From: Dudresnaya verticillata
Taxonomy: Eukaryota
Length of the DNA stretch: 64,000 nt
NCBI GenBank assembly: GCA_977862235.1
Contig: OZ374562.1
Span: 806,001 to 870,000 of the forward strand
Direction: 5' to 3'
The notes beneath the pieces are model-generated. The model was not told the DNA's origin. It saw only the letters and a list, made by a program, of their open reading frames with translations, and did no database searches. This document shows, piece after piece, positions 36,519 through 64,000 of the stretch. The translations under genes and the position numbers were made by a program. The number at the start of each line of letters is the position of its first letter. The first letter of the stretch is position 1.

Positions 36519-36520
36519 TC

Positions 36521-36538
36521 TGGTCTCCCGACCTAGAA
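36521..36538 (+). promoter_or_regulatory. Primer binding site of A
   Basis: TGGTCTCCCGACCTAGAA 2 nt after the LTR. Confidence 0.92.
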
Positions 36539-36741
36539 TTGTGCTACGTTTCAACGAGTTACTCCGTCGTGCGACGTCCGACCCTTCGTCTCTAGACGTT
36601 TGTCGCTAATCGTCCACGACGTTCAAGCAACTCTACGATTGTATTATGGCCTCACGACCGCCGCCGTCGCGAGGCCCAAGTTCAAGAAGACCGTCTTCGA
36701 CGCCTGGGAGTGTACCCGCGTCAGAACGGTCGCTACAGCGG

Positions 36742-39199
36742 ATGACAACGAGGTCTGGGCGCCTCGTGAGCCCCGAGATCGCGTCGGCGTTCCCGACGCT
36801 ACCCCCGGGCCACGGCCACGCAGGCTCCCACACGTCGCTCAACGGAGGAGAGTGACCTCCCCCGCTTACGCGCCACACCCCCGTCGTCGTCCGCACTTCA
36901 GTCCCCGAGGGATCGGCCCTCCGCACCTACCGCTCCTATGTTGACTCGGCTGATACAGTACAAGCCGAGCAACAGGACGTCGTAGACGGAACACAAGCCG
37001 ACATCGTCGAGGGACAACCGGAACTTCCGGATCAACCAACCAACCACGTCAACGACGATCAAGGGCGCTCCGCGGAGCGCAACGTCGCTGACGAACCATT
37101 GACACAAGGGGCATGTTGCCCCACTCCCCACGGCAGTGCCGGTTGTTCGCCGGCTAAGCCGAAGTCGCCAAGTCAAGGGGCGCAAGGGACGCCCGACCGG
37201 TCAAACCGCGAAAGCCAACCGCCTACGGCGTCACCCTCGGCCGTCCGCGTGAGTAACTTAACGATACCACGCGAACGGATCCGAGAGGTGTGCGTCTTAG
37301 AGGACGATGCGATGCTCGCTCGATTCGCCGGGTTGCTGGACGACAGTGTCAGAGGAATCGCAAGTCGTCTACAGACGTTGGAAGAGGATCGAAACGGCGC
37401 CCTACAAGGACTTCGATCCGACCTCGACCGTCTATTGACGAACCAAAACGCCCAAGGCGAGGGTACACAACCACCGCCGGCAGTAACGGTTCATTCGCAT
37501 TCCGAGCTTAGCTCACGCGAACGCTTTCAGCGACTCGCGACTCGCTTGAAGCGTCTCGAAACCGCCAAGTGGCGCAATGGTCCACCGTCGGGTGACGAGA
37601 GCTCATGCGAAGATCGTCACAGACGTAAGGATCGGAAGAAGCGCCGGCGCAAGCCGCGTCAGAGACGGAAGAAGAATCGTCATCGACGAGGGGACTCGTC
37701 CTCGTCCTCTTCGGACTCGTCAAGCGACGGAGAGTCATCAGACTCTTCGTCTGAAGACGACGATTTTCCAACTCTCGGCAGTGCCGCAAGACCTCGCGGG
37801 AAGCGGTTCAAGGGGTTGAAGGAGCTACGCCCCTCCAACCCCCTTTTCGATCAGTTATTATCGTACAGGACGTACCGTCTCAGAGACGTAGGGCAGAAAC
37901 GCTCAGGGCGCGACACGGGTAAGGTCAAAGACCATATCAAGCGCTTGGAGCTGACCATGAAGGACGCCGCCTTCAACGGTAGCGACCCCGTCATGGTCCT
38001 CGAGTTTCTGACGCGTTACGCGGATGAAGCCGATACGCTGGAGATGAGCGAAGCCCAAGCGTTCGTTGCACTGCCGTACTTCTTGCGAGGTACGGCAGCC
38101 ACGCAATAAGTCGACGTCTTCCCGCCATCGCGGCGGTGTGTCTTCGTATTCGGAGGCGCTGCAGTACCTCCTCCCTACGTATGCTACGCCAGCGGCGATC
38201 AGGGACGCTGTCCTCGCCCTACGGTCGACTGCCCAAAAGCAAGGCGAGGACGAGACGACCTATGGGATGCGGCTAGCCGGTGCGTGTATTCGTTGCGGTA
38301 ACGTATATCCCGATTGGGAAAAGATGACGCTGTACATCGACGGGTTAGACCCGTCGATCAGGTCCCTGGTCGCTCGCTTCCGAGAAGAAATGCCAAGGGC
38401 GGAGTTGTCATTTGAGCGGCTGGTCCACTTCGCACAGGACGAAGGGGATGCCAACCGCGCACGACACGGCAGAGCCGGTTCCGCGTCAGTACGACGTGAC
38501 CTACTGACACCGGCTCAAGCCGTACGCACACCGCGATCCGCCATCGGCGATGCCCGAGGGGTACTGCGTCCACAGACGAGAGGCGCCAAGCCTGGAGCGC
38601 GCGCTATGATAGCGGCGTCCTCCGTTGAGTTCCGAGACGTTAGTCGCCCTGTCGATGACATGGAAACACACGCCGAAGGCGATTTGTACTTGGCAGACGA
38701 GCAAGCGTCGGTGCCAACCTCGGCCCTACCGACGGACAGTTACGTCGATGACGAGGACGAAAGGGATATGGACCCTGCTCTCGCCTTTGGGCGCTCGGTC
38801 GTACCAGCGCCACGCGTCCCCTATTCCGAGTATGCTCCTCACGTCCACCGAGCAAGGCCCGGATGGCAGGACAGAGGCCCGCCCCGTCAAGACGCGCGTC
38901 GGCAGCTGGTATGCCACCAATGCTACGCCCGCGGACACATCGCGCCGGACTGCTTCCTCCGCATGAGCGACTTCATGAAGGTTATTACCAACTATGAAGG
39001 ACTAACCGAAGCCGAGAAGGCTGGTGTCCCCGCTGATGCGTATGTACGTTGCAAGGAACGCGCGACCCGCGACGCTGCTCGCCGTGCTGCACGACCATAA
39101 TCGCCCCGAGGTGGACCCATGCCGCACGCGGCAGAACGTCATCCGACGATGATCAATCGCTATGAAGCGCCGCAACCACCGCCGCAGGCGAAAAACTAA
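36742..39199 (+). pseudogene. gag: A gag (frameshifted) with CCHC zinc knuckle
   Basis: FNGSDPVMVLEFL; CHQCYARGHIAPDC; 10-nt deletion near 38107 relative to B; premature stop at 39098; ends AKN*; start approximate. Confidence 0.88.
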
Positions 39200-42100
39200 C
39201 TCGGGCACCAACTCCGGACACTGGGGTGTCGCACCACGATGAGAGGCCTAGGCCTCGGGTGCTGACACGGAAGGAGGGCCCGAAGTTAGTTACTGATGAC
39301 GCCGACGGGCGGATAGAGTCGTCACAGACGTCATTAAAACGCCCATGGCGAAGGTACCAACCCCCACAGGCGCGAGGACAGTTGTTCGTAATGGCCAAAA
39401 GGAACTATAAGGTGTACGCCGACTTGGGCGTAACCGTTAGTACCTTGGCACGTAAACTCACTGTCCTCGACACGGGGGCTGGTCCGAATTTCATTCGCAT
39501 TGACGATATTCCGCTGGAAGCGCGATCGCGCATCGTGGCAAAGAGCCTCCCCGTCATAGCCGACGCCAACAACAAGGCGATCCAGACAAGAGGCGCCATC
39601 GACCTGGTCGTTCGTCTAGGACGGAGAGACGTCAAGTTGGAACTGATCCTTTACGAACGACTCGCTGCGCCGGTTATACTCGGCTGCGACTTTTGCGACC
39701 GCTTTGTCGAAGCAATATATCCGTGAAGTCGCGAGGTTGAATTGGATGACGGGACTCTTGTCCCTATAACACGCCGCCCGCTGCGCCGACCCCCGTCGTA
39801 TCCTCCGTTACCAACGGAACAGGAATACGGCAAGGCCGAAGGGAGGACGTCGCCCAAGATCCGAGTTGCCGAGCGCGCGATCATCCCGCCTAAGGCGCAG
39901 CAATGGGTATCGGTGACCACCGAGCGCGCCGGCATCATCACAATTCAACCGTTCGGAACGCTGTACGACAAACAAGGTCTGGCCGTTACGAACGGGATTG
40001 CTCAAGTGGAGCCGCTAAAAGCGTTTCGCATTCTGGTTGCCAACTTCTCTCCCCGCCCGCAGGCGTTAGCCAAGGGCCAAGTCGTCGCGACGGGGTTACC
40101 ACATCCGACAGCAGTGTTCCCCAGTCACGTAAGTCTAGCCGATGTTTTGGGCCTCACAGAGGAACAAGCCGAGGAAGAGAAGGCAAACCAAGATTTCCGT
40201 TTTCAAACGAACGATAACACTGCGGCACAGCCGGATACTTTCACGAAGTCTATCGAGGCAACCACTGCTACACCTCCGTCAGTAGACGATTTAGACCTGG
40301 GACATCTCCCCGCCGAGCATCAAGGCCGGCTCAAGGATATGTTGCGCAAATACTCGTCTATGTGGGACGGGTCGTTGGGAGAAATCTCAACCACGGAGCA
40401 CTACATCGACTTGCTTCCCGGTTCTAGACCGATATCGTCCCCGCCCTACCGAGCGGGGCCGAAGCAAAGACAACTCGCTCAAGCGGAAGTGGACCGCATG
40501 CTGCGTCAAGGGGTTATCGAACCCGCTCAATCTCCGTGGGCGTCACCAGTGGTCTTCGCCCCCAAGAAGGATGGGACCCTCCGCTTTTGCGTGGACTACC
40601 GTCGTTTAAACGCAGTAACCATACGGGACACGTACCCGCTGCCGCGTATCGACGAATGCATCGACAGTCTAGGGGAAGCAAACGTCTTCACCACCCTAGA
40701 CTGTAACAGTGGGTACTGGCAAGTGCCGATCAATCCGCGAGACCGCGATAAGACTGCGTTCACGTGCCACGCCGGACTGTTCCGCTATAAGCGTATGCCA
40801 TTCGGTCTCACGAACGCACCCGCTACGTTTCAACGAACGTTGGACATACTGCTCGCTGGTTACAAGTGGCGTTCGTGCCTCGTCTACCTCGATGACGTAA
40901 TAATCTTCTCCAGCGACATCGACAGTCACTTCCGTCATGTTGACGAGAAACTTTCGACATTGCACCGCGCCGGGGTGACTCTGAAGTTGACCAAGTGTGA
41001 CTTCTTCACCCCGACCGTCAACTACTTAGGACACGTCATACGTCCAGGACGGTTAGAAGTTGACCGAACTGTCACTGCCGCGCTACGCGAAGCCAAGCAT
41101 CCACGGGATCAGAAGGAGCTACGGAGTTTTCTCGGTCTTTGTAACGTCTACAGACGGTTCGTCTCGCGATACGCGCATGTCGCTGCCCCCCTCAACAAGT
41201 TGCTGAGGAAGAAACAGGACTTACGGTTACAACCGTTTGATGAGACACAAGCCAAAGCGTTCAGTACGCTCGTCGAGGCCGTGACTCATCCGCCTATACT
41301 GGCGCTACGACAGCAGGGTCTCCCCTATTCCGTCGATTGTGACGCAAGCGAGTATCAGATCGGCTGCGCTCTCTTTCAGACGCAGCCCGACGGGGAACGT
41401 AAGCCGCTTGGCTTCTGGTCCCGCTCGTTCACCGCTCCAGAGCGTAACTACTCGGTCTCCGAAAAGGAGTGCCTCGCAGTAGTATGGTCCGTCATGACGC
41501 TGCGATCTTACCTCCAGATGGAGTCGTTCACAGTCCATACGGACCATTCGTAGTTGAGGTGGCTGATGGAAATCAGCGACCTCTCTGGACGGTTAATGCG
41601 GTGGCGCCTTCGCCTTTCCGAGTTCGACTTTGTCGTGAAGTACAAAAAGGGGTACCTGAATACCCAGGCAGATGCCCTTTCGCGTCTACAGACGAAAGGC
41701 GAAACCGTCGAGCCCATTGACGATGATATACCGTGCTATCACGGAAGCTACGTCGAAGACGGCCATCACACGTCACAGGACGATCTGTCAGACGCCGAAG
41801 GCGAGGTCGACGTTGCCGAACGAGAGTTCGAAGAGTTCGACCAAGTGTTGATCAACAACACGCCACCGGCGGATGAGGTACTCCTTCGTCAAGTGACGCA
41901 TGAGGAGTTGGTACACGCCCAAGGCGATGACAAGTACTGTAACGATGTCAAGAAACGTCTGAATGACGGAATCATATTGCCGTTCGCAACGGATGAACAG
42001 GGCCTGTTGGTCCGAACAGTGGAAGTCCGTCCGCAAGTGGTCGTACCCTCCGCGTTACGCGCTCGCTTACTCCACCTCTGGCACCACGCCAAGTTGGCAG

Positions 42101-43913
42101 GGCACCCAGGGGGGCGTCAGTTGTATCATACGCTTCGACGCGAATACTGTTGGCCATCGATGCCAGTGGACTGCTATGCGACCGTCCGCAACTGCGTAAC
42201 TTGCGCTAAGAATCGCGTATTGCTACGAAAAAGCACCAAGCAATTGAAGTTGTTCCCGGCAACCGAGCCTCTCGAATTTGTATCGATCGACATCCTGGGC
42301 GAACTCATACGCACGAAGTGAGGAAACAAGTTCCTACTCGTCATTGTGGACCGCTTCTCGAAGCTGGTCCGGACGGTCCCACTGCGTAGTATTACGGCAT
42401 TGTAAATCGCTAAGGCGTTTGTACGACATTGGGTCTTCGTGTACGGCCCCCCAAGAAACTGTTGTCCGAAAACGGACCACAGTTCGTGGCTAAGCTGTTT
42501 CAGGATATCTGCCGTCTTTTGGGAGTGGAGAATCTCTTCACTACGACGTACCATCCGCAATGCAATGGCCAGGTAGAACGATTCAATCGAACTATCCTGG
42601 CCTCGCTGCGTCACTACGTTGCGGATCATCCGAGGGACTGGGACCTGTTCACGGATGCCTTGACGTTCGCATACAACACACAGTTGCATTCGTCTACGCA
42701 TCTCGCTCCGTCTGAATTGGTGCTATCGAAGCCACCACGGCCATTGTCGCTCGACGCGGAACCGTCGCTCGAAAGCGTACCCACCGCGGGGCAATACTAC
42801 ACCAAGTGGCGAACGTGGAGGGGCGCACTGATGGGAACCGCTAAAGCGTCGTTAGAGAAAACTCAAGCACGTTAGAAACGAAACTTCGATACCCGATTAA
42901 GGAAATCGAAGGAAACAATCGCCGTAGACGACTTCGTATTCGTACGTAAGGACTTCGCCCGAGGCGGGAGCACGGATCGCGCAGAGCGTAAGCATAAGCT
43001 GGCGCCAGTGGCGGACGGACCATACCGGGTAACTCACGTTGATAACGAGACAGTAACCGTCCACAAGGGGCGTGATGAGCGGGAACGTTTGTCCCGAGAC
43101 CGCGTGGTCTGGGCGCCGACCCCACCGGGTCAGGCGGCCCCTCCAATCGTCGTACCACCAGGTCCGCCTGAGGAGCAGGGAGCAGTCGCCCCCACGTCAC
43201 ACCACGAAGGGACGACTACCCCAGGCACGCCACCAGCGGACCCGGGAGAGGACGCAGACACTCCGCGTACTGCGCCAGATCCGCAAGAGCGTACGCTCGC
43301 AGCGTCGCGCAGTCGTGGGTTGGCAGAGCTTTCGCCCTTCGCAGCCGATCGCAACGACCGCGCTTCGCAACCCGTCTCCAACGACGACAGTACCCCAGGG
43401 GTTCGCACCCGTTTGGAACACGTCGCTACGGCACCGCCGAATGAGAAAAATGACTCCGCTGAAAGCGCGTCCGATAACGAAGACGTTAACCGTGCAAGCA
43501 CGAAGCAAGGCGCTGCAAGCGATGAACTCGTCTCCAGACGCAACAACCCACTGACCGCTGATCGAGCGTCCGAGGCCCAAGGCCAACGCCTTCGGCGATC
43601 AACTCGTCGAGTACGCTTCGCCGAACCGGAACAGACGCCCATCACGCAACGAGACGAACCGCCAAAGGCGCTGGAAAGTACCACGTCCAAGCTGAACGCT
43701 GGGAGCGGGAAAGAATGCGTGATTGAACGCATCGAGTCGCATGCGTACGCGGATGATGGTGAGATCCTCTACCGTGTCAAGTGGTTTGGATACCCCACTT
43801 CAGCGAACACCTGGGAGCCCGTGTCCAGTTTGCCGCGATCACACGCCGTGCGGTACCACCGTCGGAAGCACACGCGCCTGCCTCCAAATATTGACGACGC
43901 CCAGCACGGATAA
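39190..43913 (+). pseudogene. pol: A pol (PR-RT-RNaseH-INT-chromodomain) with stops and a frameshift
   Basis: LDTGAG, YLDD, DCDAS, HHAKLAGHPG..CVTC, YHPQCNGQVERFN, GPY, YRVKWFGY..NTWEP. Confidence 0.96.
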
Positions 43914-45426: not shown

Positions 45427-47781
45427 TCACGTCGCAGACGGTTTGGCCGAGTCCGCCGCACCATCGCCCTCGGCGGACTCCCTCAACGCCTCTTCATAGA
45501 GGTCGTCTTCCGTCACTGACGGCACACCAACAGCGGCAACAGGGAAGGACCGCAAAGGAACCGCCACCGCCACCGATGGAGAAGTAATACGCGCCGCTGG
45601 CGAAGAGTTTGACTCACCACCCGCCTTAGGCGGCGAAGCCTTTTTGGCTTTGCCAACCGCCGATGGCGCAGAACCAAGTCGGTCATCCGCCTCCGGCGCT
45701 GCCACGATAACACGCGCCTTCGGCGTAGTTGCAGGGGCTGTCCCCTTGGATGGCGAACCAACCGCAACCGCCTTTGGCGTAGAGTTCAACTCATCGCTAG
45801 CCTTCGGCGCCGCAGAACCTACCGCCTTCGGCGCAACTGCCGCAACCGTCTGAACCGACGTAGACCCCTCACCCGCCTTCGGCGTCATCGGTTCTATATC
45901 CGTCATCGACGCAGGAGCCACTGGGCCCTCCTCAACCGTCAGAGACGTTGTAGCGACATCTGCCTCGCTCGCCGCTGGCGGTACAGTAGCACTTACGTCC
46001 TTGGACGCTGAACCAGTCGCCTTAGGCGATGACGACTTTCCGTCTGCACCGTCTTTCGACGCAGAACCTACGCCAACCATCGGCACCGGCACCGACGCAC
46101 TCTGGGGACGCGGCGCAGCCGCCAGAGACTGGCTCACCCACTCAGTGGGCGAGCCACTCAAACCGCTAGTAGCGACTCCAGCTGCACGCAATAAGGCGAG
46201 CACGGTGCGGCGCTGTTCCTCGGTCCAGACCGGCACCGAGGGCACCGTCACAGACCCGTCTATGACGTTTGATACTACGCCTTGAGGCGTTACGGTCGGC
46301 GGAGCCGACTCGACTATTGGCGTCGCCATAATGGCATCGCCATCAACGTCCGAGACGGGAGCCGCGAGGTCCAAAGGTGCCACAGCCGGCAAGCCAGCTG
46401 ACACCCCAACACCACCGGCAGACCCTTGTGGCAACGCTGATGGTGGAGCCGCAGCCTCGGCAGATGACTCAACCGCCATAGGCGTAGCAACAGCCGTCCC
46501 AGACGGGTTACCCGGCTCGCCATCGGCGTTAAAAGCATCTTCCTCGGCCATCAAGGAACTCAAATGCGGAGGAAAATCACCGACAAAGTCGCAGCTCTTA
46601 CGCAAACCACGCGGGTGATTACCCGGTGTGAAGCGGTCCGTTTTGCGATGGCGCTCCGCAACGTTCTTCGTCGTACGACGCTTTGTCCATGGATTATAAT
46701 GGATCCAATCGCCACAGGCGGAGTGAGTACGACTCATCGCGAATCGCGGGCGGTTCGTCTTACGACGGTTGTTCCCTAACGGCACCGTCGCCGGGTCGTT
46801 CCAGTTAATTTCATCCGCTATTGAGCGCAAATCCCAGAACTCCTGGCTGTTCCTCGACCCGCCGAGTATCTCGGCTAGGTCCAGGCCACCAAGAGACGCG
46901 ACTATGCGAGGTGGCAGATAATACATGCGGAAGGTGTCATACACCTCCCACATCCAATCGTACGCTACGTTTGCCACCCACTCGGTGTAGAACATCACCC
47001 ACCATTTGGAGTACGGGTCCGTCATTAACTCCGACCCGATATACGTGAGACACGGAGGAAGTTCGGCAGCGAAACCTTCGCAAATTTCGAACTCTCGCCA
47101 AACGGGTGGCACCTTCACGAAGCAGTGAGGCAACTTACTGCGTTCGATATGATCGACCTGCATATCCTGATAGGCCACAAAGACGCCCTTTCGGCGACGC
47201 GTTTCACATTCCCAACGTATGCACCGTTCCCAAAAGAACGTCCCCGTTCGGTGTTGGTAACGAAAATCCGCTTTCAAGCGCACTCCCAGGAGGTACGCCT
47301 CCTGCCTGATGCGCGGCTCTGCCGAGACGCTCAGATGTTTGAGCGATAACGTCCCTAGACGATTCCCATATTCAATATCGCCATTGGTCCGGTATTGACC
47401 GGCATCAAGCTCGAAGATGGCCGGCGTTAACGCCGAACACGGATAACGCGTGGAGCGGCGATACACGTCTCCGACGAACTTGGCATGAACACCCGCACGC
47501 GATTGCCCTGCGCGAACCCACAGCCACTCGGGCGGAACCGCGCAGCGCAACTTCCAATTCATCGTCCAGACGACGGCAAGGGGGAGTCCTCCCGGCAAAA
47601 ATCCGCTAGTAGCGTAATGAGCAATGAGCTACTCATTGCGAAAGGCCTCCTGGTCAAACCAGGGGGCCTGCGCGAAGATGTCCCCGTGATCCTGCGGGTT
47701 CTTCCCGACGAAGTCGTATGGAGATAAGTATACCGGCGCGGCCGAGGGCGCCGCAACCTGCACACCATTGAACGTCGGCAT
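45427..47781 (-). CDS. Antisense accessory ORF of A, unknown function (~785 codons; premature stop at 47629-47631)
   Basis: 723-aa open frame 45427-47598; in-frame upstream ATG at 47781 (MPTFNGVQVAAP); strong protein conservation with the B copy. Confidence 0.85.
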
Positions 47782-48239
47782 AACGTCAACGACGCAACTT
47801 CGTTTACGCCACTGGCGCTTAAGGTCAAACGAACGTCAACGACGACTCTTGCACCACGCCACAGGCGGATATCCTTTCGGCTTACGTCAAAAGACGCCTT
47901 TTGTTCCTCGCCGTTGGCGACTACGATGAAGCTGCGTCACAGACGGGAAACACCTGCGCCTCGGGCGATGAACTTCACACAACTCGTCGACGACGATACA
48001 ACTGAAACGCCCCAGGCGACGAATTGAATGTGGCGTCGTTGACGGGATTCGCAAGGCGCCAACGGCGATGGTGTACAGTGAAGAAAAGCGCGCACGAGAG
48101 AGAGGGCTCGCCGGACGCAACGCGCAGCACGCGAGGTTAGCAGGCACAGCCGGAACGCAGGAACGCACGCACAAAGATGTGGGACCCGCAGAGAAACGCA
48201 AGCTTGTGGCGGACGTGTTCGCGTTTTGCGAGGGGGTCG

Positions 48240-49075
48240 TGTGGTGCAAGGGGAGGGCTGCCCCTTTTTCGCTGTGAGCGTATTATATGCCATCGTCTAC
48301 CGATGGCACGTCAACCGCCGTTGGCGCGCGAACACGTCATAGACGATTGGCCCACGGGCGTACGGCCGCCGTTACCCCGCGCGGCGCGGCGCACGCGCCC
48401 ACTGTACGGCCGGATCCGGATACACGATCCCGATCGGTCGGGCGCAAGGCGCCCGCCTGTAAGCTTGGCCCGGATCCGGATCGGATCCGGATGGGACATC
48501 GAGATCCAGCATCCGAATCTACAGTGATGTAAGGAGCGCGCCTGTAATGGCCGCGCGCCAGCAATGCTGGCAGGGATCTGGATCCGAATCCGGATTCCTC
48601 ACGCCGCTACACGCATGCGTCTGTAAGCTACCCTTGAGCTCCCGCGCACGCGGCTGCATGGCGACGACGACGTGTCAGACACTCGACGGTGCGACACGCG
48701 TCCTGAGTTCCCGCGCACCGCACCTGCCGCCGTCGCTCGCGTAGTATATTAGGTAATCCGTCTGAGACGCTGAGTAAACCCCGGACAAGCCGGCCTTGGT
48801 CCAGACTTCCCCGTTCCGCACGCGCGCATTCTACCGCTGCCTACGGCTAAGCGTCTACCTCCCGTGCTTCCACGTCTACCATCGTCCTTGACGTGTCCCC
48901 TTTCTCTTTCCCTTTTCCTTCCTTTCCGCCTCGGGCGTTTACAGTCCGCCCAAGGCGTGCCCCTTTGCTCTACCACCAAGTCGCCGACGGCGGGACTACC
49001 TACCGCCGAGGGCGCAGCTACCCACCGAGCCCCGAACTGCTCGGCGGTTCATCGTGTACAGACGTTTGCACCACA
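48240..49075 (+). repeat. 3' LTR of A
   Basis: Direct repeat of 35683-36518; preceded by short PPT GAGGGGGTCG. Confidence 0.97.
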
Positions 49076-50281
49076 TACATCAGCCCCCGCGCTGATAAAC
49101 CCACTCTTACCAACGTACTTGATCAAATCAAGTCTCGGTCTTCATGCCCCACGCTTCTGATGGGGGACTTCAACGCACGCCATCCGTCTTGGTTCTCAGC
49201 ACGCAACCCCCGCGGCCAAGCCCTCGTGTCGTGGTGCTCTCGAAATCCGTTCACAATCTCCGCCCCCCCTGTACCGACCTTCCACAGTGGCAATGGCAGC
49301 GGTGGTTCAAGCACCATCGACTGGTGCGTCGCCAACTGTGATCCCCTTGCACAACCCCACGTCGCCGAAGGTACCTGGGACGGGGCCAGTGACCACGCAA
49401 CCATCGTCGCCACCCTCCGACCGCGCTTCCCCACTCCGTCCCTGGCCCCAACCTGCGCCAAGCGCGCCCGCCACCGGGTTACCAAGACGACTTTGGCGAA
49501 CCCAAAACACTACGAAGCTGTCAGAGAATGCTACCGAGAATCCCTGCCCCCCTTTATTGCAGAACTGAAAACCTCCAGGACCTCGCTTGGGGCTCAGAAC
49601 ACCCTTGCCAAACTCCCCACCATCCTCTCAAAGCCTTGGGTTAGCGTTGCACCCGCAAGACCCCGTCGTTTTAAGCCACACTGGTCCATTGAGCTCTACT
49701 GCATGCGACGGCATAGGTGCCGTGCGTTCCGGCGAATGCCAAGCTCTGCTGCAGCACCCCAACGCGCCGCTGCTGAGCAGGAATACCGTAAGCTACAGCG
49801 CGTTATACATCCCCGAGTTCGAGCCATCAAGCGTCGCCAGAAGGAGAGATCCCAGCAAGAGTTGCTTCAACGCCCTCACTCTGACTTGGCTACTGCGATA
49901 CGTGCGCAACAGATGAAGCGCAAGCCACGACTTCGGCTCCAAAACGCTACAGGACCCTCTCTAGACCCAGCCCGCTTCACCCGGCACATGCGATCTCCCG
50001 CCGCTGTCCCACCCACGCCAGCTTCCCAAGAATTTTATGTACGTCCTTCCTTCCAGCAGTCCATCCTTCGGGCCATCTCCTCCATGGCAAGCGGAAAAGC
50101 GGTTGGACCAGACAACACACACGTGGAAATGCTGAAGCTCTGTCCCTCCCTCTGTGCTGACTTGCTTTTTGCAGTGTGGCAGTGTTGTGGCCGATTTGGA
50201 ATATTCCCAAGTGCCTGGAATGAGGGCGTCCTGATTCCTGTTCACAAGTCCGGACCGGTTGAAGATCCAGACAACCACCGC
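49076..50281 (+). pseudogene. LINE ORF2 continuation (rest of APE and start of RT)
   Basis: LLMGDFNARHPSW, STIDW, SDH, KAVGPD, FPSAWNEGVLIPVHKSG..DNHR; open throughout. Confidence 0.92.
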
Positions 50282-51184
50282 TGTGGTGCAAACGTCTGTA
50301 GACGATGGACCGCCGAGCAGTTCGGGGCTCGGTGGGTAGCTGCGCCCTCGGCGGTAGGTAGTCCCGCCGTGGGCGACTTGGTGGTAGAGCAAAGGGGCAC
50401 GCCTTGGGCGGACTGTAAACGCCCGAGGCGGAAAGGAAGGAAAAGGGAAAGAGAAAGGGAACACGTCAAGGACGATGGTAGACGTGGAAGCACGGGAGGC
50501 AGACGCTTAGCCGTAGGCAGCGGTAGAATGCGTGCGTGCGGAACGGGGAAGTCTGGACCAAGGCCGGCTTGCCCGGGCGTTTACTGTTACGTCTGGGACG
50601 GCTTACCTAAGTACAGTACGGCGATTCGGCGGCGGCGGTGCGTATGCGTAGCGCGGGAACTCGGGACACGTGTCATCCCGAGGCGCGTCTGACAGATCAC
50701 CGATTGCATGCAGCCGCGCGCCTGACAGGTTGCCGTGCAATCCCCTGTACGGGTGCTTACACACACACGTGGACGCGTGGACCTTACAGCCGTGCGTGCG
50801 CGCGCACTGTAGAGCGTGCGCATTAGATCTAACCCGATACTTGTCCGATCCCGATCCCATCCGGATCGGGCCAGCAATGAGAATACCCGGAGCCTTACAG
50901 GCGCGGATCTTACAGCTTAGGCGATCCGGATAGCCAATCTGGATACCGGATCCGGATCCCATCTGGATCCGTATTACAGTGCCCCGGGGCGCCACGTAGG
51001 GCCATCACCGTACAGTGCCCGCGTGGCGCGCGGCGCGCAGTGTGCGCACGCGCCCCAGTGAGCCGTCGATGACGTGTTCGCGCGCCAACGGCGGTGGTGA
51101 GCGCCGGTGGCGGTTTCTCCGTCGGTCGACGTATTTGGTCTGCCCGCTTTCAGCGGAAAAGGGCTCACCTCCCCTTGCACCACA
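50282..51184 (-). repeat. 3' LTR of B
   Basis: TGTGGTGCAA...TTGCACCACA; adjacent PPT GGAGGGGGGTCG on the minus strand. Confidence 0.96.
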
Positions 51185-51483
51185 CGACCCCCCTCCAAAA
51201 CGCGAACACGACCCGACCCTCAACCTGCTGCCGTGCGTTCTGCCGTTGCGTCCCTGCCGACTTCCGCGCCTTGCGAGTGAGTCCCCGCGTCTTCGCGTAT
51301 TGTATTGGTGCGCCGCTTGCGACTGCGACCTCGGCTGTGCCGTAAGAACTCCGCTCTTGTTGCGTTTGCGTACTCGTGCGGCTGCGTACGCTGCCCCGAC
51401 ATCACCGCCTGTGGCGCATAACGAGCTCCGTCGTTGACGTCTATCGTATATCCCTCGCCTGGGGCGTTGCAACTTAATCGTCA

Positions 51484-51770
51484 TCGACGTCGTTTGCCTT
51501 CAGCATCGCCATTGGCGCAGCAGTCGAACGTCGTTGACGCGGGTTTCCTTCTCTCGCCTAAGGCGTCGCAACAGTAGTCGTCTTCGACGTCGTTTGCCTT
51601 TGGCATCGGCATTGGCGCAGCAGCTGAACGTCGTCGACGTGGGTTTCGTTTCCTCGCCGAAGGCGTTACAACAGTAATCGTCTTCGACGCACGCTTCTTG
51701 ATGCTTTCGCCAGTGGCGCAGAACACGAGTCGTCTTTGACGTTTGCACAAGCATCGCCTTTGGCGTTAAC
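51484..51770. repeat. 100-bp tandem repeat (about 2.5 copies) upstream of the B antisense ORF
   Basis: TCGACG-initiated units start at 51484, 51584 and 51684. Confidence 0.8.
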
Positions 51771-51796
51771 ATATTCTCGTCGTTGACGTCATACCG

Positions 51797-54093
51797 ATGT
51801 TCAATGGCATGCAGGTGGCGGCGCCCGCGGCTGCGCCGGTGTACGCTTCGCCGGTCGACTTCGTCGGAAAGAACCCTCGCGATCACGCGCATTTCTTCGC
51901 GCGGGCCCCTGGTTTGACCAGGAGGCTTTGCGCGAGGAGGAATTGGTTGCCCATTACGCTACTAGCGGTTTCTTGCCGGGGGGCCTGCCCCTCGGCGTCG
52001 TCTGGACGTTGGAATGGAAGTTACGCTGCGCCGTTCCTGCGGAATGGCTTTGGGTGCGAGCGGGACAGTCGCGTGCGGACGTCCACGCGCAGTTCGTCTC
52101 AGACGTGTATCGTCGCTTCACGCGGTATCCGGGGTCCACGTTAACGCCGCCCCTGTTCAATTATGATGCGGGACAGTACCGCACAGCCGGCGAAGCCGAA
52201 TACGGTATTCGTCTTGGGACGTTATCGCTCAAACACGTGAGCGTGTCGGTTGAACCGCGCGTGTTGGGAGAGGCCTATCTGTTACGCGTACGCTTGAAAG
52301 CGGATTTTCGTTACTTGCATCGTACGGGTACGTTCTTTTGGGAGCGTTGTATCCGGTGGGAGTGCGAGATGCGTCGCCGAAAGGGCGTATTCGTACCTTA
52401 CCAGGACATGCAGGTCGATCGCATTGAGCGTAGTAAGTTACCGTTTTGTTTCGTGAAGGTACCGCCTGTATGGCGAGCGTTTGAGATATGCGAGGGTTTC
52501 TCCGTAGAGCTTCCTCCGTGTGTCACGTATCTTGGTTCCGAGCTGATGACCGACCCCTATTCCAGGTATTGGATCGTGTTTTACACGGAGTGGGTCGCCA
52601 ATGTGGCGTATGCGTGGTTATGGGAGGTGTATGACACCTTCCGTATGTACCACTTGCCCCCGCGTGTGGTGGCTCAGCTTGGCAGCCTCGACTTGGTCGA
52701 AATATTTGGCGGGTCCCGGAACGCCGAGGAGTTCTGGAACCTGCGCGCTGTGGCGGATGAGATCGACTGGAACGACCCGGCAATGGTGCCGTATGCGAAC
52801 AACCGCCATAAGGCGAACCGTCCGCGATTCGCGATGAGTCGGACTCACTCCGCCTGTGGCGATTGGATCCATTGTAATCCATGGACTAAGCGTCGTACGA
52901 CGAAGAACGTTGCGGAGCGCCATCGCAAAACGGACCGCCTCACCCCGGGTAATCACCCGCGTGGTTTGCGTAAGAGTTGCGACTTTGTCGGTGATTTTCC
53001 TCCGCATTTGAGCGCCTTAATGGCCGAGGAGGATGCGTTTAACGCCGATGGCGGACCGGAGAACCCGTCTGGGACGGACATTGCTGCGCCTATGGCGGTT
53101 GAGTCAACTGCCGAGCCTGCGCCCGCGTCTTCGGCTTTGCCTGGAGGCGCTGTTAGTGGCGGTGGAGTGCCAGCTGGTCTGCCAGCTGTTGCTCCTCTGG
53201 ACCTCGCGGCTCCCGTCGCTGACGATGACGGCGATTCCGTTATGGCAACGCCAATAGTGGAGTCGGCTCCGCCGACCGTGATGCCTCAAGGCGAAGCATC
53301 GAACGTCGCAGACGGTTCTGGGGGTCCAGCTTCGGTGCCGGTTTGGACCGAAGAACAGTGCCACACCGTGCTTGCGTTATTACAGGCGGCAGGCGTCGCT
53401 ACTAGCGGTCTGAGCGGCTCACCCACTGAGTGGATGAGCCAAGCGTTGTCGACTGCGGTTCCACCTCAGGGTGGACCCGCACCGAAGTCGACTAGTGTCG
53501 TAGGTTCTGCGTCGAAGGACGGTGTGGCAGAGATGCCTTCGTCGCCTAAGGCGAATGGTCCGGCGTCTAAAGACGTGAATATGACTGTACCGCCTGTGGC
53601 GAGCGAAGCGAATGCCGCTATAGCGTCGTTGACGGTTCCAAAGGGGCCAGGGGCTCCTGCGTCATTGACGGGTGTTGGGTTAACAGCGCCGAAGGCGAGT
53701 GAAGAAGCGACGCCAATCAAGGCGGTTTCTGAACTGACGCCAAAGGCGGTCGACGAGTCGTTGACTACGCTTAAAGCGGATGGGGCTGTGCCCGCGCCTA
53801 AGGCGAAATGTAGCTTAGGCTCTGCGCCTGTGGCGGGTGTTGTTGCTCCATCGCCTTTGGCGGATATTGTAGCGACGACGCCCAAGGCGATTGATGAGTC
53901 TCCCACTTCGCCTGCGGCGCCTGTTGTGGCCACTCCGGCAGTTGCGGTGGCAAGGCCTTTGCGGTCCGCCCCGGCTCCTGCCGTGGGTGCGCCGTCAACG
54001 ACGGAGGACGACCTCTACGAAGAGGCGTTGCGTGAGTCCGCCGAAGGCGCTGGGGACGTGCCCGCCGATTCGTCTGCGACGAAGGAGTCTTGA
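51797..54093 (+). CDS. Antisense accessory ORF of B, unknown function (1-nt frameshift at ~51909)
   Basis: MFNGMQVAAP (51797) joins the 721-aa frame 51928-54093; homologous to 45427-47781. Confidence 0.85.
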
Positions 54094-55400: not shown

Positions 55401-58400
55401 TTAGCCGCGTTGCGCGTCGTCGACGTTTGGCGGCAGCTGCATACGTTCGCGACGGTGGTATCGTGTGACGTGGGAGCGCGGCAAACTGGAGACTGGCTCC
55501 CAGGTGTTCGCTGAAGCGGGGTATTCAAACCACTTGACGCGGTAGAGGATCTCATCATCATCCGCGTATGCGTGCGACTCTATGCGTTCAATCACGTATT
55601 CTTTTCCGCTCACAGCGTTCGGCTTGGGCGTGGACCTGTCCAGCGCCTTTGGCGGTTTGTCTCGTTGCGTGATGGGCGTCTGTTCCGGCTCGGTGAAGCG
55701 TACTCGACGAGTTGATCGCCGAAGGCGTTGGCCTTGGGCCTCGGACGCTCGATCAGCGGTCAGTGGATTGTTGCGTCTTGAGACGAGTTCATCGCTTGCA
55801 GCGCCTTGCTTCGTGCTTGCACGGTTAACGTCGTCTTTATCGGACGCGCTTTCAGCGGAGTCATTGTTCTCTTTCGGTGGTGCCGTAGCGACGTTTTCCA
55901 AACGGGTGCGAACCCCTGGGGTACTGTCGTCGTTGGAGACGGATTGCGAAGCGCGGTCGTTGGGATCGGTGGCGAAGGGCGAAAGCTCTGCCAACCCACG
56001 GCTGCGTGACGCGGCGATCGTACGCTCTTGCGGATCTGTCGCAGTATGCGAAGTGTCTGCGTCCTCTTCCGGGTCCGCTGGCGGCGTGCTTGGGGTAGTC
56101 GTCCCTTCGTCGTGTGACGTGGGGGCGCCTGCTCCCTGCTCCTCAGGCGGGCCTGGTGGTACGACGATTGGAGGGGCCGCCTGACCCGGTGGGGTCGGCG
56201 CCCAGACCACGCGGTCTCGGGACAAACGTTCCCGCTCATCACGTCCCTTGTCGACGGTTACTGTCTCATTATCAACGTGCGTTACCCGGTATGGTCCGTC
56301 CGCCACTGGCGCCAGCTTATGCTTACGCTCTTCGCGATCCGTGCTCCCGCCTCGGGCGAAGTATTCCTTACGTACGAATACGAAGTCGCCTACGGCGATT
56401 GTTTCCTTCGATTTCCTTAATCAGGTATCGAAGTTTCGTTTGTAACGTGCTTGAGTTTTCTCTAACGACGCTTTAGCGGTTCCCATCAGTGCGGCCAGCC
56501 ACGTTCTCCACTTGGTGTAGTATTGCCCCGCGGTGGGTACGCTTTCGAGCGACGGTTCCGCTTCGAGCGACAATGGTCATGGTGGCTTCGACAGCACCAA
56601 TTCAAACGGAGCGAGATGCGTAGACGAATGCAACTGTGTGTTGTAGGCGAACGTCAAGGCATCCGTGAACAGGTCCCAGTCTCTCGGATGATCCGCAACG
56701 TAGTGACGCAGCGAGGCCAGGATAGTTCGATTGAATCGTTCTACCTGGCCATTGCATTGCGGATGGTACGTCGTAGTGAAGAGATTCTCCACTCCCAAAA
56801 GACGGCAGATATCCTGAAACAGCTTAGCCACGAACTGTGGTCCGTTTTCGGACAACAGTTTCTTGGGGGGCCGTACACGAAGACCCAATGTCGTACAAAC
56901 GCCTTAGCGATTTACAATGCCGTAATACTACGCAGTGGGACCGTCCGGACCAGCTTCGAGAAGCGGTCCACAATGAAGAGTAGGAACTTGTTTCCTCGCT
57001 TCGTGCGTATGAGTTCGCCCAGGATGTCGATCGATACAAACTCGAGAGGCTCGGTTGCCGGGAACAACTTCAATTGCTTGGTGTTCTTTCGTAGTAATAC
57101 GCGATTCTTAGCGCAAGTTACGCAGTTGCGGACGGTCGCATAGCAGTCCACTGGCATCGATGGCCAATAGTATTCGCGTCGAAGCGTATGATACAACTTA
57201 CGCCCCCCTAGGTGCCCTGCCAACTTGGCGTGGTGCCGGAGGTGGAGTAAGCGAGCGCGTAACGCGGAGGGTACGACCACTTGCGGACGGACTTCCACTG
57301 TTCGGACCAACAGGCCCTGTTCATCCGTTGCGAACGGCAATATGATTCCGTCATTCAGACGTTTCTTGACATCGTTACAGTACTTGTCATCGCCTTGGGC
57401 GTGTACCAACTCCTCATGCGTCACTTGACGAAGGAGTACCTCATCCGCCGGTGGCGTGTTGTTGATCAACACTTGGTCGAACTCTTCGAACTCTCGTTCG
57501 GCAACGTCGACCTCGCCTTCGGCGTCTGACAGATCGTCCTGTGACGTTTGATGGCCGTCTTCGACGAAGCTTCCGTGATAGCACGGTATATCATCGTCAA
57601 TGGGCTCGACGGTTTCTCCCTTCGTCTGTAGACGCGAAAGGGCATCTGCCTGGGTATTCAGGTACCCCTTTTTGTACTTCACGACAAAGTCGAACTCGGA
57701 AAGGCGAAGGCGCCACCGCATTAACCGTCCAGAGGGGTCGCTGATTTCCATCAGCCACCTCAACGACGAATGGTCCGTATGGACTGTGAACGACTCCATC
57801 TGGAGGTAAGGTCGCAGCGTCATGACGGACCATACTACTGCGAGGCACTCCTTTTCGGAGACCGAGTAGTTACGCTCCGGAGCGGTGAGCGAGCGGGACC
57901 AGAAGCCAAGCGGCTTACGTTCCCCGTCGGGCTGCGTCTGAAAGAGAGCGCAGCCGACCTGATACTCGCTTGCGTCACAATAGACGGAATAGGGGAGACC
58001 CTGTTGTGGTAGCGCCAGTATAGGCGGATGAGTCACGGCCTCGACGAGCGTACTGAACGCTTTGGCTTGCGTCTCATCAAACAGTTGTAACCGGAAGTCC
58101 TGTTTCTTCCTCAGCAACTTGTTGAGGGGGGCAGCGACATGCGCGTATCGCGAGACGAACCGTCTGTAGACGTTACAAAGACCGAGAAAACTCCGTAGCT
58201 CCTTCTGATCCCGTGGATGCTTGGCTTCGCGTAGCGCGGCAGTGACAGTTCGGTCAACTTCTAACCGTCCTGGACGTATGACGTGTCCTAAGTAGTTGAC
58301 GGTCGGGGTGAAGAAGTCACACTTGGTCAACTTCAGAGTCACCCCGGCGCGGTGCAATGTCGAAAGTTTCTCGTCAACATGACGGAAGTGACTGTCGATG

Positions 58401-60127
58401 TCGCTGGAGAAGATTATTACGTCATCGAGGTAGACGAGGCACGAACGCCACTTGTAACCAGCGAGCAGTATGTCCAACGTTCGTTGAAACGTAGCGGGTG
58501 CGTTCGTGAGACCGAATGGCATACGCTTATAGCGGAACAGTCCGGCGTGGCACGTGAACGCAGTCTTATCGCGGTCTCGCGGATTGATCGGCACTTGCCA
58601 GTACCCACTGTTACAGTCTAGGGTGGTGAAGACGTTTGCTTCCCCTAGACTGTCGATGCATTCGTCGATACGCGGCAGCGGGTACGTGTCCCGTATGGTT
58701 ACTGCGTTTAAACGACGGTAGTCCACGCAAAAGCGGAGGGTCCCATCCTTCTTGGGGGCGAAGACCACTGGTGACGCCCACGGAGATTGAGCGGGTTCGA
58801 TAACCCCTTGACGCAGCATGCGGTCCACTTCCGCTTGAGCGAGTTGTCTTTGCTTCGGCCCCGCTCGGTAGGGCGGGGACGATATCGGTCTAGAACCGGG
58901 AAGCAAGTCGATGTAGTGCTCCGTGGTTGAGATTTCTCCCAACGACCCGTCCCACATAGACGAGTATTTGCGCAACATATCCTTGAGCCGGCCTTGATGC
59001 TCGGCGGGGAGATGTCCCAGGTCTAAATCGTCTACTGACGGAGGTGTAGCAGTGGTTGCCTCGATAGACTTCGTGAAAGTATCCGGCTGTGCCGCAGTGT
59101 TATCGTTCGTTTGAAAACGGAAATCTTGGTTTGCCTTCTCTTCCTCGGCTTGTTCCTCTGTGAGGCCCAAAACATCGGCTAGACTTACGTGACTGGGGAA
59201 CACTGCTGTCGGATGTGGTAACCCCGTCGCGATGACTTGGCCCTTGGCTAACGCCTGCGGGCGGGGAGAGAAGTTGGCAACCAGAATGCGAAACGCTTTT
59301 AGCGGCTCCACTTGAGCAATCCCGTTCGTAACGGCCAGACCTTGTTTGTCGTACAGCGTTCCGAACGGTTGAATTGTGATGATGCCGGCGCGCTCGGTGG
59401 TCACCGATACCCATTGCTGCGCCTTAGGCGGGATGATCGCGCGCTCGGCAACTCGGATCTTGGGCGACGTCCTCCCTTCGGCCTTGCCGTATTCCTGTTC
59501 CGTTGGTAACGGAGGATACGACGGGGGTCGGCGCAGCGGGCGGCGTGTTATAGGGACAAGAGTCCCGTCATCCAATTCAACCTCGCGACTTCACGGATAT
59601 ATTGCTTCGACAAAGCGGTCGCAAAAGTCGCAGCCGAGTATAACCGGCGCAGCGAGTCGTTCGTAAAGGATCAGTTCCAACTTGACGTCTCTCCGTCCTA
59701 GACGAACGACCAGGTCGATGGCGCCTCTTGTCTGGATCGCCTTGTTGTTGGCGTCGGCTATGACGGGGAGGCTCTTTGCCACGATGCGCGATCGCGCTTC
59801 CAGCGGAATATCGTCAATGCGAATGAAATTCGGACCAGCCCCCGTGTCGAGGACAGTGAGTTTACGTGCCAAGGTACTAACGGTTACGCCCAAGTCGGCG
59901 TACACCTTATAGTTCCTTTTGGCCATTACGAACAACTGTCCTCGCGCCTGTGGGGGTTGGTACCTTCGCCATGGGCGTTTTAATGACGTCTGTGACGACT
60001 CTATCCGCCCGTCGGCGTCATCAGTAACTAACTTCGGGCCCTCCTTCCGTGTCAGCACCCGAGGCCTAGGCCTCTCTTCGCGGTGCGACACCCAAGTGTC
60101 AGGATTTGGTGCCCGAGTTAGTTTTTC
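55401..60127 (-). pseudogene. pol: B pol (PR-RT-RNaseH-INT-chromodomain)
   Basis: 887-aa frame 56912-59575 with YLDD; PR in 59591-60268; chromodomain EYVIERIESH..YRVKWFEY..NTWEP. Confidence 0.96.
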
Positions 60128-62582
60128 GCCTGCGGCGGTGGTTGCGGCGCTACATAGCGGTTGATCATCGTCGGGTGACGTTCGGCCGCGTGCGGCATGG
60201 GTCCGCCCCGTGGAGATTGTGGTCGTGCAGCACGGCGAGCAGCGTCGCGAGTCGCGCGTTCCTTGCAACGTACATACGCATCAGCGGGGACACCAGCCTT
60301 CTCGGCCTCGGTTAGTCCTTCATAGTTGGTAATAACCTTCATGAAGTCGCTCATGCGGAGGAAGCAGTCCGGCGCGATGTGTCCGCGGGCGTAGCATTGG
60401 TGGCATACTAGCTGCCGACGCGCGTCTTGACGGGGCGGGCCTCTGTCCTGCCATCCGGGCCTTGCTCAGTGAACGTGAGGAGCATACTCGGAATAGGGGA
60501 CGCGTGGCGCGGGTACGACCGAGCGCCCAAAGGCGAGAGCAGGGTCCATATCCCTTTCGTCCTCGTCATCGACGTAACTGTCCGTCGGTAGAGCCGAGGT
60601 TGGCACCGACGCTTGCTCGTCTGCCAAGTACAGATCGCCTTCGGCGTGTGTTTCCATGTCATCGACAGGGCGGCTAACGTCTCGGAACTCGACGGAGGAC
60701 TCCGCTATCATAGCGCGTGCTCCAGGCTTGGCGCCTCTCGTCTGTGGACGTAGTACCCCTCGTGCATCGCCGATGGCGGATCGCGGTGTGCGTACGGCTT
60801 GAGCCGGTGTCAGTAAGTCGCGTCGTGCTGACGTGGAACCGGCTCTGCCGTGTCATGCGCGGTTGGCATCCCCTTCATCCTGTGCGAAGTGGACCAGCCG
60901 CTCAAATGACAACTCCGCCCTTGGCGTTTCTTCTCGGAAGCGAGCGACCAGGGACCTGATCGACGGGTCTAACCCGTCGATGTACAGCGTCATTTTTTCC
61001 CAGTCTGGATATACGTTACCGCAATGAATACACGCACCGGCTAATCGCATCCCATAAGTCGTCTCGTCCTCGCCTTGCTTCTGGGCCGTTGACCTTAGGG
61101 CGAGGACAGCGTCCCTGATCGCCGCTGGCGTAGCATACGTACGGAGGAGGTACTGTACTGCCTCCGGATACGAAGACACCCCGCCGCGGTGGCGAGAAGA
61201 CGTAGACTTGACGGAGCGGAATTGAGTGGCTGCCGTACCTCGCAAGAAGTACGGCAGTGCAACGAACGCTTGGGCTTCGCTCATCTCCAGCGTATCGGTT
61301 TCATCCGCGTAACGCGTCAGGAACTCGAGGACCATGACGGGGTCGCTGCCGTTGAAGGCGGCGTCCTTCATGGTCAGCTCCAAGCGCTTAATATGGTCCT
61401 TGACCTTACCCGTATCGCGCCCTGAGCGTTTTTGCCCTACGTCTTTGAGACGGTACGTCCTGTACGATAGTAACTGATCGAAAAGGGGGTTGGAGGGGCG
61501 TAGCTCCTTCAACCCCTTGAACCGCTTTCCGCGAGGTCTTGCGGCACTGCCGAGAGTTGGAAAATCGTCGTCTTCAGACGAAGAGTCTGATGACTCTCCG
61601 TCACTTGACGAGTCCGAAGAGGACGAGGATGAGTCCCCTCGTCGATGACGATTCTTCTTCCGTCTCTGACGCGGCTTGCGCCGGCGCTTCTTCCGATCCT
61701 TACGTCTGTGACGATCTTCGCATGAGCTCTCGTCACCCGACGGTGGACCATTGGGCCACTTGGCGGTTTCGAGACGCTCTAAGCGAGTCGCAACTCGCTG
61801 AAAGCGTTCGCGTGAGCTAAGCTCAGAATGCGAATGAACCGTTACTGCCGGCGGTGGTTGTGTACCCTCGGCTTGGGCGGTTTGGTTCGTCAATAGACGG
61901 TCGAGGTCGGATCGAAGCCCTTGTAGGGCACCGTTCCGATCCTCTTCCAACGTCTGTAGACGACTTGCGATTCCTCCGACACTGTCGTCTAGTAACCCGG
62001 CGAATCTAGCGAGCATCGCATCGTCCTCCAAGACGCACATCTCTCGGATCCGTTCGCGTGGTATCGTTAAGTTACTCACGCGGACGGCCGAGGGTGACGC
62101 CGTTGGCGGTTGACTTTCGCGGTTTGACCGGTCGGGTGTCCCTTGCGCCTTTTGACTTGGCGAATTCGGCTTAGCCGGCGAACAACCGGCACTGCCGTGG
62201 GGAGTGGGGCAACATGCCCCTTGTGTCAATGGTTCGTCAGCGACGTTGCGCTCCGCGGAGTGCGCTTGATCGTCGTTGACGGGGATGGTTGGTTGATCCG
62301 AAAGTTCCGGTTGTCCCGCGACGATGTCGGCTTGTGTTCCGTCTACGACGTCCTGTTGCTCGGCTTGTACTGTATCAGCCGAGTCAACGTAGGAGCGGTA
62401 GGTGCGGAGGGCCGATCCCTCGGGGACGGAGGTGCGGACGACGACGGGGTTGCGCGTCGGCGGGGGAGGTAACTCTCCTCCGTTGAGCGACGCGTGGGAG
62501 CGTGCGTGGCCGTGGCCCGGGGTAGCGTCGGGAACGCCGACGCTATCTCGGGACTCACGAGGCGCCCAGACCTCGTTGTCAT
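60118..62582 (-). pseudogene. gag: B gag with CCHC zinc knuckle
   Basis: Long frame 60853-62724; in-frame stops at 60853 and 60466; CHQCYARGHIAPDC; ends AKN*; start approximate. Confidence 0.88.
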
Positions 62583-62785
62583 CCGCTGTAGCGACGTCTC
62601 TGACGCGGGTACACTCCCAGGCGTCGAAGACGGTCTTCTTGAACTTGGGCCTCGCGACGGCAGCGGTCGTGAGGCCATGATACAATCGTAGAGTTGCTTG
62701 AACGTCGTGGACGATTAGCGACAAACGTCACAAGACGGAGAGTCGGACGTCGCACGACGGAGTAACTCGTTGAAACGTAGCACAA

Positions 62786-62803
62786 TTCTAGGTCGGGAGA
62801 CCA
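62786..62803 (-). promoter_or_regulatory. Primer binding site of B
   Basis: TGGTCTCCCGACCTAGAA 2 nt after the LTR. Confidence 0.92.
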
Positions 62804-62805
62804 GA

Positions 62806-63707: not shown

Positions 63708-64000
63708 CCCATGGCAGCGATACCACAACAAATCCGAAACGGTAGAGGTCCGCGCTTGAAAATAGCCATGCACCCATTGGCTTTGCCATACAAATTCTCT
63801 CCGATTCGGAACAACGCCAATGCGTTGATTCGCCTTGAAGGGTTGCGCCATGAAGGCCTTATACCTTCTTGCTTCCAAGACGGTTGGATACTTCTCGATG
63901 AAGTAGTCCGCCGTCATCGGGGGCTTAATCTTTGCCCTATACGCATCGGTTCTAGCCGGGCGCCTCGCGCGATGATCAAAGTGGTGCCCCGGCCAATAAC
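63708..64000 (-). CDS. Fragment of an unknown protein, possible remote homologue of the antisense ORF family, cut by the B LTR
   Basis: Open from the window edge: YWPGHHFD..MTADYFIEKYP..GVVPNRREFVWQSQW..SDLLWYRCHG. Confidence 0.45.

Follow-up and report, generated by a model that had tools for sequence, protein, structure and literature searches.

A selected antisense third gene in two chromodomain LTR retrotransposons of Dudresnaya verticillata

Is a long open reading frame (ORF) on the strand opposite to the gag-pol of a retrotransposon a real gene, and if so, what might it do for the element? The question is raised by a 64,000-nucleotide stretch of the Dudresnaya verticillata genome (NCBI GenBank assembly GCA_977862235.1, contig OZ374562.1, positions 806,001 to 870,000 of the forward strand), hereafter the window, to which all coordinates refer. 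Self-comparison and Pfam searches showed the window to be a nest of transposons, among them two related long terminal repeat (LTR) elements that are inverted relative to each other, element A (35683-49075, plus strand) and element B (50282-63707, minus strand), both Ty3/gypsy elements with a chromodomain. Each carries an antisense ORF, which we found to be a real gene that was under selection while the A and B lineages diverged.

The antisense gene and the ancestry of its carriers

The copy in A (45427..47781, minus strand) runs from an ATG at 47781 to a stop at 45427 and has 785 codons, and the copy in B (51797..54093, plus strand) is 2297 nt or about 766 codons long. Both genes are opposite to gag-pol, with the integrase chromodomain on one side and the 3' LTR on the other. 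A preliminary description made from the letters alone had placed two antisense ORFs between pol and the 3' LTR, and its coordinates and strands were verified, while its length of about 785 codons each was right for A and too long for B. It had also noted one lesion per copy near the N-terminus; these are a lone in-frame stop at codon 51 of A (47629-47631) and, in B, a single frameshift at about 51905-51909. The 36-40 residues before each lesion match the N-terminal extension of the protein family (24 and 20 bits against a profile made from 70 homologues; 0/500 shuffles each), and the start of the gene thus lies upstream of the lesions. The start codons, 47779-47781 in A and 51797-51799 in B, are offset by two codons, and the position of the other copy's start is non-ATG.

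After the lesions, the two genes share 83% identity over 380 codons, with 50, 31 and 145 differences at codon positions 1, 2 and 3, so the protein is indeed conserved despite third-position changes, as the description had said. Over these codons dN/dS is 0.105 (bootstrap 0.075-0.151; dS 0.97, dN 0.10), and the remaining five frames of the same DNA contain 7-17 stops per copy. The tail of the gene is less constrained, with 58% identity and a dN/dS of 0.43 between the copies. The non-coding flanks give alignments of 57-67% with many gaps, in keeping with the remark that they are barely alignable. A selected third gene had been suspected, with dN/dS named as the measure, and the low value between A and B and the large diverged family both agree with it. 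The present copies A and B are both broken, in the antisense gene and in gag-pol. The description mentioned neither the breaks in gag-pol nor the relatives beyond the window, the second conserved module, the U3 array and the mosaic ancestry.

The two elements differ at 11/303 nt in R-U5, and their dS is 0.11 for gag, 0.14 for the integrase tail, 0.50 for the chromodomain and 0.97 for the antisense gene. The contrast of 0.11 in gag with 0.50 and 0.97 downstream points to one block of different ancestry, and the chromodomain, the antisense gene and U3 thus appear to form that block. A single template switch near the integrase end would yield such a block. The dS of pol is not usable for this comparison, because the reverse transcriptase (RT) cores (39571-41170 in A and the partner segment in B) differ at 1/1600 nt versus ~31 predicted from the LTR ages; either a merge in the assembly or gene conversion, recent and between inverted neighbours, would explain this. 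Two pol stop codons are common to A and B (39724/59593 and 42403/56914), which would fit either conversion or a common defective parent that was copied in trans.

The predicted protein and its family

An exhaustive search with a cut-off of E<=0.001 returned 432 clusters (clustered at 50% identity), of which 171 were at E<=1e-10 and 41 at E<=1e-30. Judging from these matches, the antisense gene is widespread and belongs to a large family without a name. A total of 115 relatives were aligned, and the 68 members with a nearly complete domain all follow one plan, namely a variable N-terminus (median 58 aa), a globular domain of ~350 aa and a low-complexity, mostly acidic tail (median 145 aa). Gracilariopsis chorda has four near-identical relatives, which form one 90% cluster, lie on four contigs and are all annotated 'hypothetical'. 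When 20 relatives were looked up, 7 of them among 150 listed, the annotated ones were the G. chorda cluster alone. These 'hypothetical proteins' are likely transposon genes, which is relevant to annotators.

Contig sizes connect the gene with RTs elsewhere. Two of the 13 long contigs bearing a relative were equal in exact nucleotide size to a contig in a list of 118 RT hits that had been compiled blind, against 0.02 expected (P ~2e-4). A third pairing emerged after a targeted look-up, in which P0001 and the RT P0017 each have two full-length copies and these pair with each other. A fourth pairing (2844 nt) was discarded as a coincidence, because the contig is too small for the two genes and 0.33 such pairs are expected among short contigs. 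The size-matched contigs thus tie the antisense gene indirectly to related RTs, without its orientation. One metagenome locus of 1.5 kb (L001) holds the gene alone, and the gene was not found in the searched genome contigs, where one distant RT locus (L002) is without it. L002 belongs to a 20-Mb 'bacterial' metagenome-assembled genome (G001) with a Ty3/gypsy RT and several SAP-domain ORFs, which suggests eukaryotic contamination. Viral contigs, plasmids and phages were searched for the gene and gave no match, and neither did an Rfam search. The literature search found no account of the gene; Repbase and most subscription journals were outside its coverage.

The conserved domain lies at 46606..47661 (minus strand) in A, where the family profile scores 407 bits, and at 51910..52965 (plus strand) in B. 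AlphaFold2, with an alignment of 117 sequences, gave a confident model of the B domain (pLDDT 93.8, pTM 0.92) consisting mainly of helices and ordered loops. The domain contains 11% Arg and many aromatics. Its conserved arginines are R91, R134, R152, R155, R245 and R300 (B-domain numbering), its near-invariant charged residues are D86, R91, E95, E151, R155, E192, D242 and D318, and no conserved His or Cys metal ligands were seen in it.

No known domain had been recognised from the letters, and this held after a Pfam search and, for the predicted structure, fold searches in PDB and BFVD. Foldseek returned 0 matches at E<=0.001 against PDB and 0 against the BFVD viral structures. A VIA-wide fold search gave a best Z of 2.8 among 48,161 chains (19 at Z>=2), which is far below the 7-8 usual even for models without a clear match, and most of its rows span residues 5-76 only. 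The best E in a PDB profile search was 0.23, Pfam, PHROGs, NCBIfam and PADLOC gave none or single weak matches, and the ESM Atlas gave leads below 0.9 only, with none for the G. chorda protein. The domain is probably a new fold, its C-terminal part having been searched only as part of the whole model; if the model holds, this fold is without a solved relative.

Two candidate identities were rejected. The family has a 'GDFxYxDP' word that resembles one of retrotransposon DAM methyltransferases, but W follows instead of PY (43 PW, 1 PY), a motif-I pattern occurs in 1/166 members, and the domain model does not show the DAM Rossmann fold. An env-like ORF3 was rejected as well, for the gene is antisense, not sense, and has no consistent transmembrane or signal segment. 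Hydropathy exceeds 1.8 (19-residue window) in 3/68 members and at inconsistent places, and thus the protein has no membrane or signal character.

Beyond a disordered linker, the tail holds a predicted two-helix hairpin at 46105..46230 (minus strand) in A and 53341..53466 (plus strand) in B, the latter modelled with pLDDT 82 and helices at 4-16 and 28-39. By pattern it occurs in 37/55 long tails, and by profile 18/36 held-out tails score above the 99th percentile of shuffles. The family hairpin was compared with a small SAP alignment of 7-8 rows, SAP having been chosen by eye before the test; hhalign gave a probability of 28-34% with E 4-7e-4, against 0/60 column shuffles and 0.4% for the reversed alignment. 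Rho_N and E3-binding profiles did no better than shuffles. Pfam on 36 hairpin rows found no SAP match, and one row each matched Ish1 (E 0.044) and HeH (E 0.16). In the fold comparison, the hairpin scored Z 3.1 to both the C-terminus of T4 endonuclease VII (rmsd 3.4, 38 aligned) and the SAP of MANF (rmsd 4.6, 39 aligned), less than some unrelated rows. SAP and HeH domains of mobile elements, such as those of Zisupton and a Chlamys element (PMC8557442), are likewise short helix-loop-helix structures with a similar residue pattern, whereas the family hairpin stays below Pfam thresholds, is mostly not basic and is degenerate in both window copies. The hairpin is best described as a binding module on a tether, whose pattern in the family is weakly SAP-like.

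A possible nuclear regulator and the competing explanations

As a tentative answer to what the gene does, held with less than even confidence, we propose that its product is made from a transcript of its own and works in the nucleus as a regulator, which activates the LTR of its own element or relieves it of silencing. The gene would be unreadable from genomic RNA and would need a separate transcript, which the description had supposed to be driven from the 3' LTR in reverse. A start within that LTR or slightly inward of it is likely, and the product could thereby be made while gag-pol is off. Since the antisense gene appears uncoupled from Gag-Pol in this way, a regulator suits it better than a part of the particle. 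The Arg-rich globular domain would bind nucleic acid, with an array in U3 as the candidate site. Contacts with chromatin or with silencing proteins of the host would be made by the hairpin on its tether and by the long disordered tail. Gene and U3 would be copied as one block in reverse transcription, so that factor and site could stay together through recombination. A nuclear activator or anti-silencer is favoured on account of the antisense layout and of three further features, a soluble domain rich in Arg, a hairpin on a tether and the array in U3. By this indirect argument, and of the three roles put forward in the description, anti-silencing or chromatin work fits the layout, the hairpin and the array better than packaging does.

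The U3 array consists of ATCCGG/GGATCC sites. In A, 10 sites lie at 48410..48595 in the 3' LTR, with a twin array at 35853-36038 in the 5' LTR; in B, ATCCGG arrays of 7 sites (50859..50957) and 5 sites (63382-63474) lie in the U3 of the 3' and 5' LTRs, respectively. Counts of 10 in the A LTR and 7 in the B LTR compare with ~0.6 expected, and the best 6-mer reaches them in 0 and 2 of 300 shuffles. The other 60.5 kb of the window contain only 26 ATCCGG/GGATCC sites, and the LTR of a third element, C, which is without the antisense gene, contains no ATCCGG. The U3 regions of A and B align poorly, yet both have the array. At 1-1000, a GGATC-rich stretch with 10 sites ends an unnamed ORF-like region and belongs to no LTR of A, B or C.

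Several observations weigh against a nuclear, DNA-directed regulator. The domain has no sequence or structure link to a known DNA-binding protein or chromatin enzyme in Pfam, PDB, BFVD or VIA, and its median net charge in the 68 members is only +2. The hairpins of A and B alone reach 0.3% hhalign probability against SAP, that is, no match, and the fold matches of the hairpin are tied with unrelated two-helix pieces of up to Z 4.3. A basic DNA-facing surface as in SAP was not found, the net charge of the hairpin being positive in 6/36 rows and negative in 23/36, against 6/7 positive SAP rows. A simple pattern resembling a nuclear localisation signal occurs in only 15 tails. As to the array, the U3 regions of A and B share descent, the contrast with element C is one case, and sites for host transcription factors account for it equally well. 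The orientation and position of the gene come from the two window copies only. Lastly, CpG is not depleted (observed/expected 1.15-1.5) and the 50 LTR transitions show no clear context bias; thus nothing points to DNA methylation as the target, and CpG methylation is unlikely in that role here.

Retand/Tat elements (TRP28; Grande, RIRE2) resemble A and B in that an antisense ORF lies after pol and ahead of the 3' LTR; the antisense ORFs of Retand are proposed to be DNA-binding regulators, and the Grande product is nuclear (PMC11963269). Retand elements form a lineage outside the chromoviruses, are those of flowering plants and have no chromodomain, whereas A and B carry one. Membership in the TRP28 family was rejected by sequence, as 0/68 members at E<=0.1 and 0/2 window ORFs matched it in Pfam, and the gene is Retand-like in layout but not in sequence. 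It is likely a convergent third gene, apparently invented independently of that in Retand.

VANC, from the VANDAL Mutator-like DNA transposons, is likewise an accessory protein encoded by a transposable element (TE), and combines a folded domain with disordered stretches. Its targets are arrays of short motifs in its own element, which is what we propose here for U3. VANC belongs to eudicot DNA transposons and is MAIN-like (PMC13547354). No VANC/MAIN-like (plant mobile) domain was matched by Pfam in the family, and no such fold match was listed, although a relation may exist. A and B show no sign of methylation-driven decay.

PAG1-3 of Plavaka are accessory genes of red-algal TEs, known from DNA transposons, and PAG1, compared here by description only, is without a recognised domain (10.1101/2025.02.11.637652). 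PAG2 and PAG3 carry methylase, SET, ParB and oxygenase domains, all absent from the antisense gene (10.1101/2025.02.11.637652). Antisense accessory ORFs are thus already known, while the protein family here is apparently new, provided that it is not that of PAG1.

More doubtful than the regulator itself is its extension to a whole red-algal retrotransposon lineage, in which the new fold would be an anti-silencing factor made from an antisense transcript, binding ATCCGG in U3 and blocking chromatin silencing. If true, it would be a retrotransposon counterpart of VANC, independently evolved and inherited with its target site as a swappable block. A precedent for a regulator in general is that accessory genes acting on chromatin occur on algal transposons (10.1101/2025.02.11.637652; PMC12477816). 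H3K27me3 is found on Cyanidioschyzon repeats, and non-CG methylation with small RNAs in G. chorda (PMC8566409). Except in Bostrychia, red-algal genomes have grown mostly by LTR elements (10.1101/2025.02.11.637652). How red algae silence LTR elements, and how elements counter it, may now be approached experimentally through a conserved, well-folded protein borne by the elements. Since its diverged versions number in the hundreds and intact copies exist in nature, expression, mapping of DNA or RNA targets and pull-down of host partners are feasible.

Of the rival explanations, an RNA-binding protein fares best, although we consider it unlikely; it would counter silencing by small RNAs, or act as chaperone or exporter of the RNA of the element. 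The Arg content of the domain, its aromatics and its want of a DNA-binding fold would suit such a protein, and SAP-like modules are present in RNA-binding proteins too. The association of methylated TEs with small RNAs in G. chorda (PMC8566409) and the RNA-silencing role proposed for extra ORFs of plant chromoviruses (PMC11728184) point the same way. However, Foldseek against PDB and the VIA search matched no dsRNA-binding (double-stranded RNA) or other RNA-binding fold, and an antisense transcript overlapping genomic RNA would itself form dsRNA.

A cofactor of the particle or pre-integration complex, acting in packaging, nuclear entry or tethering of integrase to chromatin, is quite unlikely. 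The climb of dS from gag through the integrase tail and chromodomain to the gene would mean that chromodomain and gene travel together, and an adaptor might well be built as a folded domain to which a hairpin for binding is flexibly tethered; position alone, however, explains that linkage. Parts of particles usually come from sense RNA, in step with Gag. Moreover, no Gag likeness was found by profile, and the chromodomain elements C and D of the window have no homologue of the gene.

An enzyme of new fold, tethered by the hairpin and acting as a modifier of DNA, RNA or histones, seems improbable. Near-invariant charged residues in a compact, confident model speak for it, and a catalytic domain with a SAP tether is a common layout. 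Methylases and oxygenases borne by TEs are known from algae (10.1101/2025.02.11.637652; 10.64898/2026.05.21.726589). Against it stand the missing His/Cys metal ligands, the PW in place of PY after the DAM-like word together with the near-absence of the motif-I pattern, and a model that is nearly all helix and loop.

Most improbable is cargo captured from the host or another transposon without a role in the element, or a factor for cell-to-cell movement or of env type: the genomic context of the relatives was seen only indirectly, L001 being the gene only, and PAG1 of red-algal Plavaka, without a known domain, moves between TE families (10.1101/2025.02.11.637652), but the selection took place inside the elements, a single host gene would hardly appear as hundreds of diverged clusters and as scattered copies that are nearly identical, membrane segments are lacking, and the EnSpm-like element of the window has no homologue.

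Structure of A and B and neighbouring elements

Paired LTRs, a primer-binding site, a polypurine tract and the domain order establish A and B as Ty3/gypsy LTR retrotransposons. By Pfam, both encode RT, RNase H, integrase and a C-terminal chromodomain in that order, with PF00385 at the integrase C-terminus (E 3e-9 in A and 5.5e-9 in B). The 5' LTR of A (35683..36518, plus strand) is identical to its 3' LTR (48240..49075, plus strand, with the polypurine tract before it) at 825/836 positions, and a 5-bp target-site duplication flanks the element (35678-35682 and 49076-49080). In B, the 5' LTR (62806..63707, minus strand) and the 3' LTR (50282..51184, minus strand) are identical at 879/902 positions; a matching target-site duplication was looked for in the flanks and none was seen. 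The gag-pol of A (36856..43913, plus strand; chromodomain ~43719-43835) and that of B (55401..62727, minus strand; chromodomain ~55452-55598) are each broken by stops and one frameshift. A gag stop of B at about 60120 (minus strand) lies just past an A-run where the pol frame opens, which by eye looks like a programmed -1 frameshift. The primer-binding site (36521..36541, plus strand), just after the 5' LTR of A, is common to B; we take its primer to be tRNA-Tyr, while assignment by tool gave none. A 100-bp tandem repeat of 2.4 copies (51451..51689, plus strand) lies between the 3' LTR of B and the start of the antisense gene.

The RT tree was made by a quick method without reference lineages, and the chromovirus label of A and B rests on the chromodomain; chromodomain Gypsy lineages of algae outside the chromoviruses do exist (PMC12477816). 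The named red-algal RT matches are from Agarophyton chilense, at 60-68%, which together with the annotated G. chorda relatives would suggest a florideophyte red alga as host.

Element D (2450-8455, minus strand) is a third, decayed chromodomain element without a homologue of the antisense gene and without located LTRs. Element C (12957-33186) is a chromodomain LTR element with LTRs identical at 614/667 positions and a gap of ~1.4 kb between pol and LTR; it gave no RT hits, no homologue of the gene and no U3 array. A long interspersed (LINE) endonuclease-RT at 49076-50281 and 63708-64000 is split by B without a target duplication, and its frame seems continuous across B. Nested in C at 19234-32192 is a 13-kb element with inverted ends and a transposase (DUF7869) that we presume, from its motifs, to be of the EnSpm/Plavaka-like class; it also has a WD40-like piece (about 30999-31451) and several ORFs without a name.

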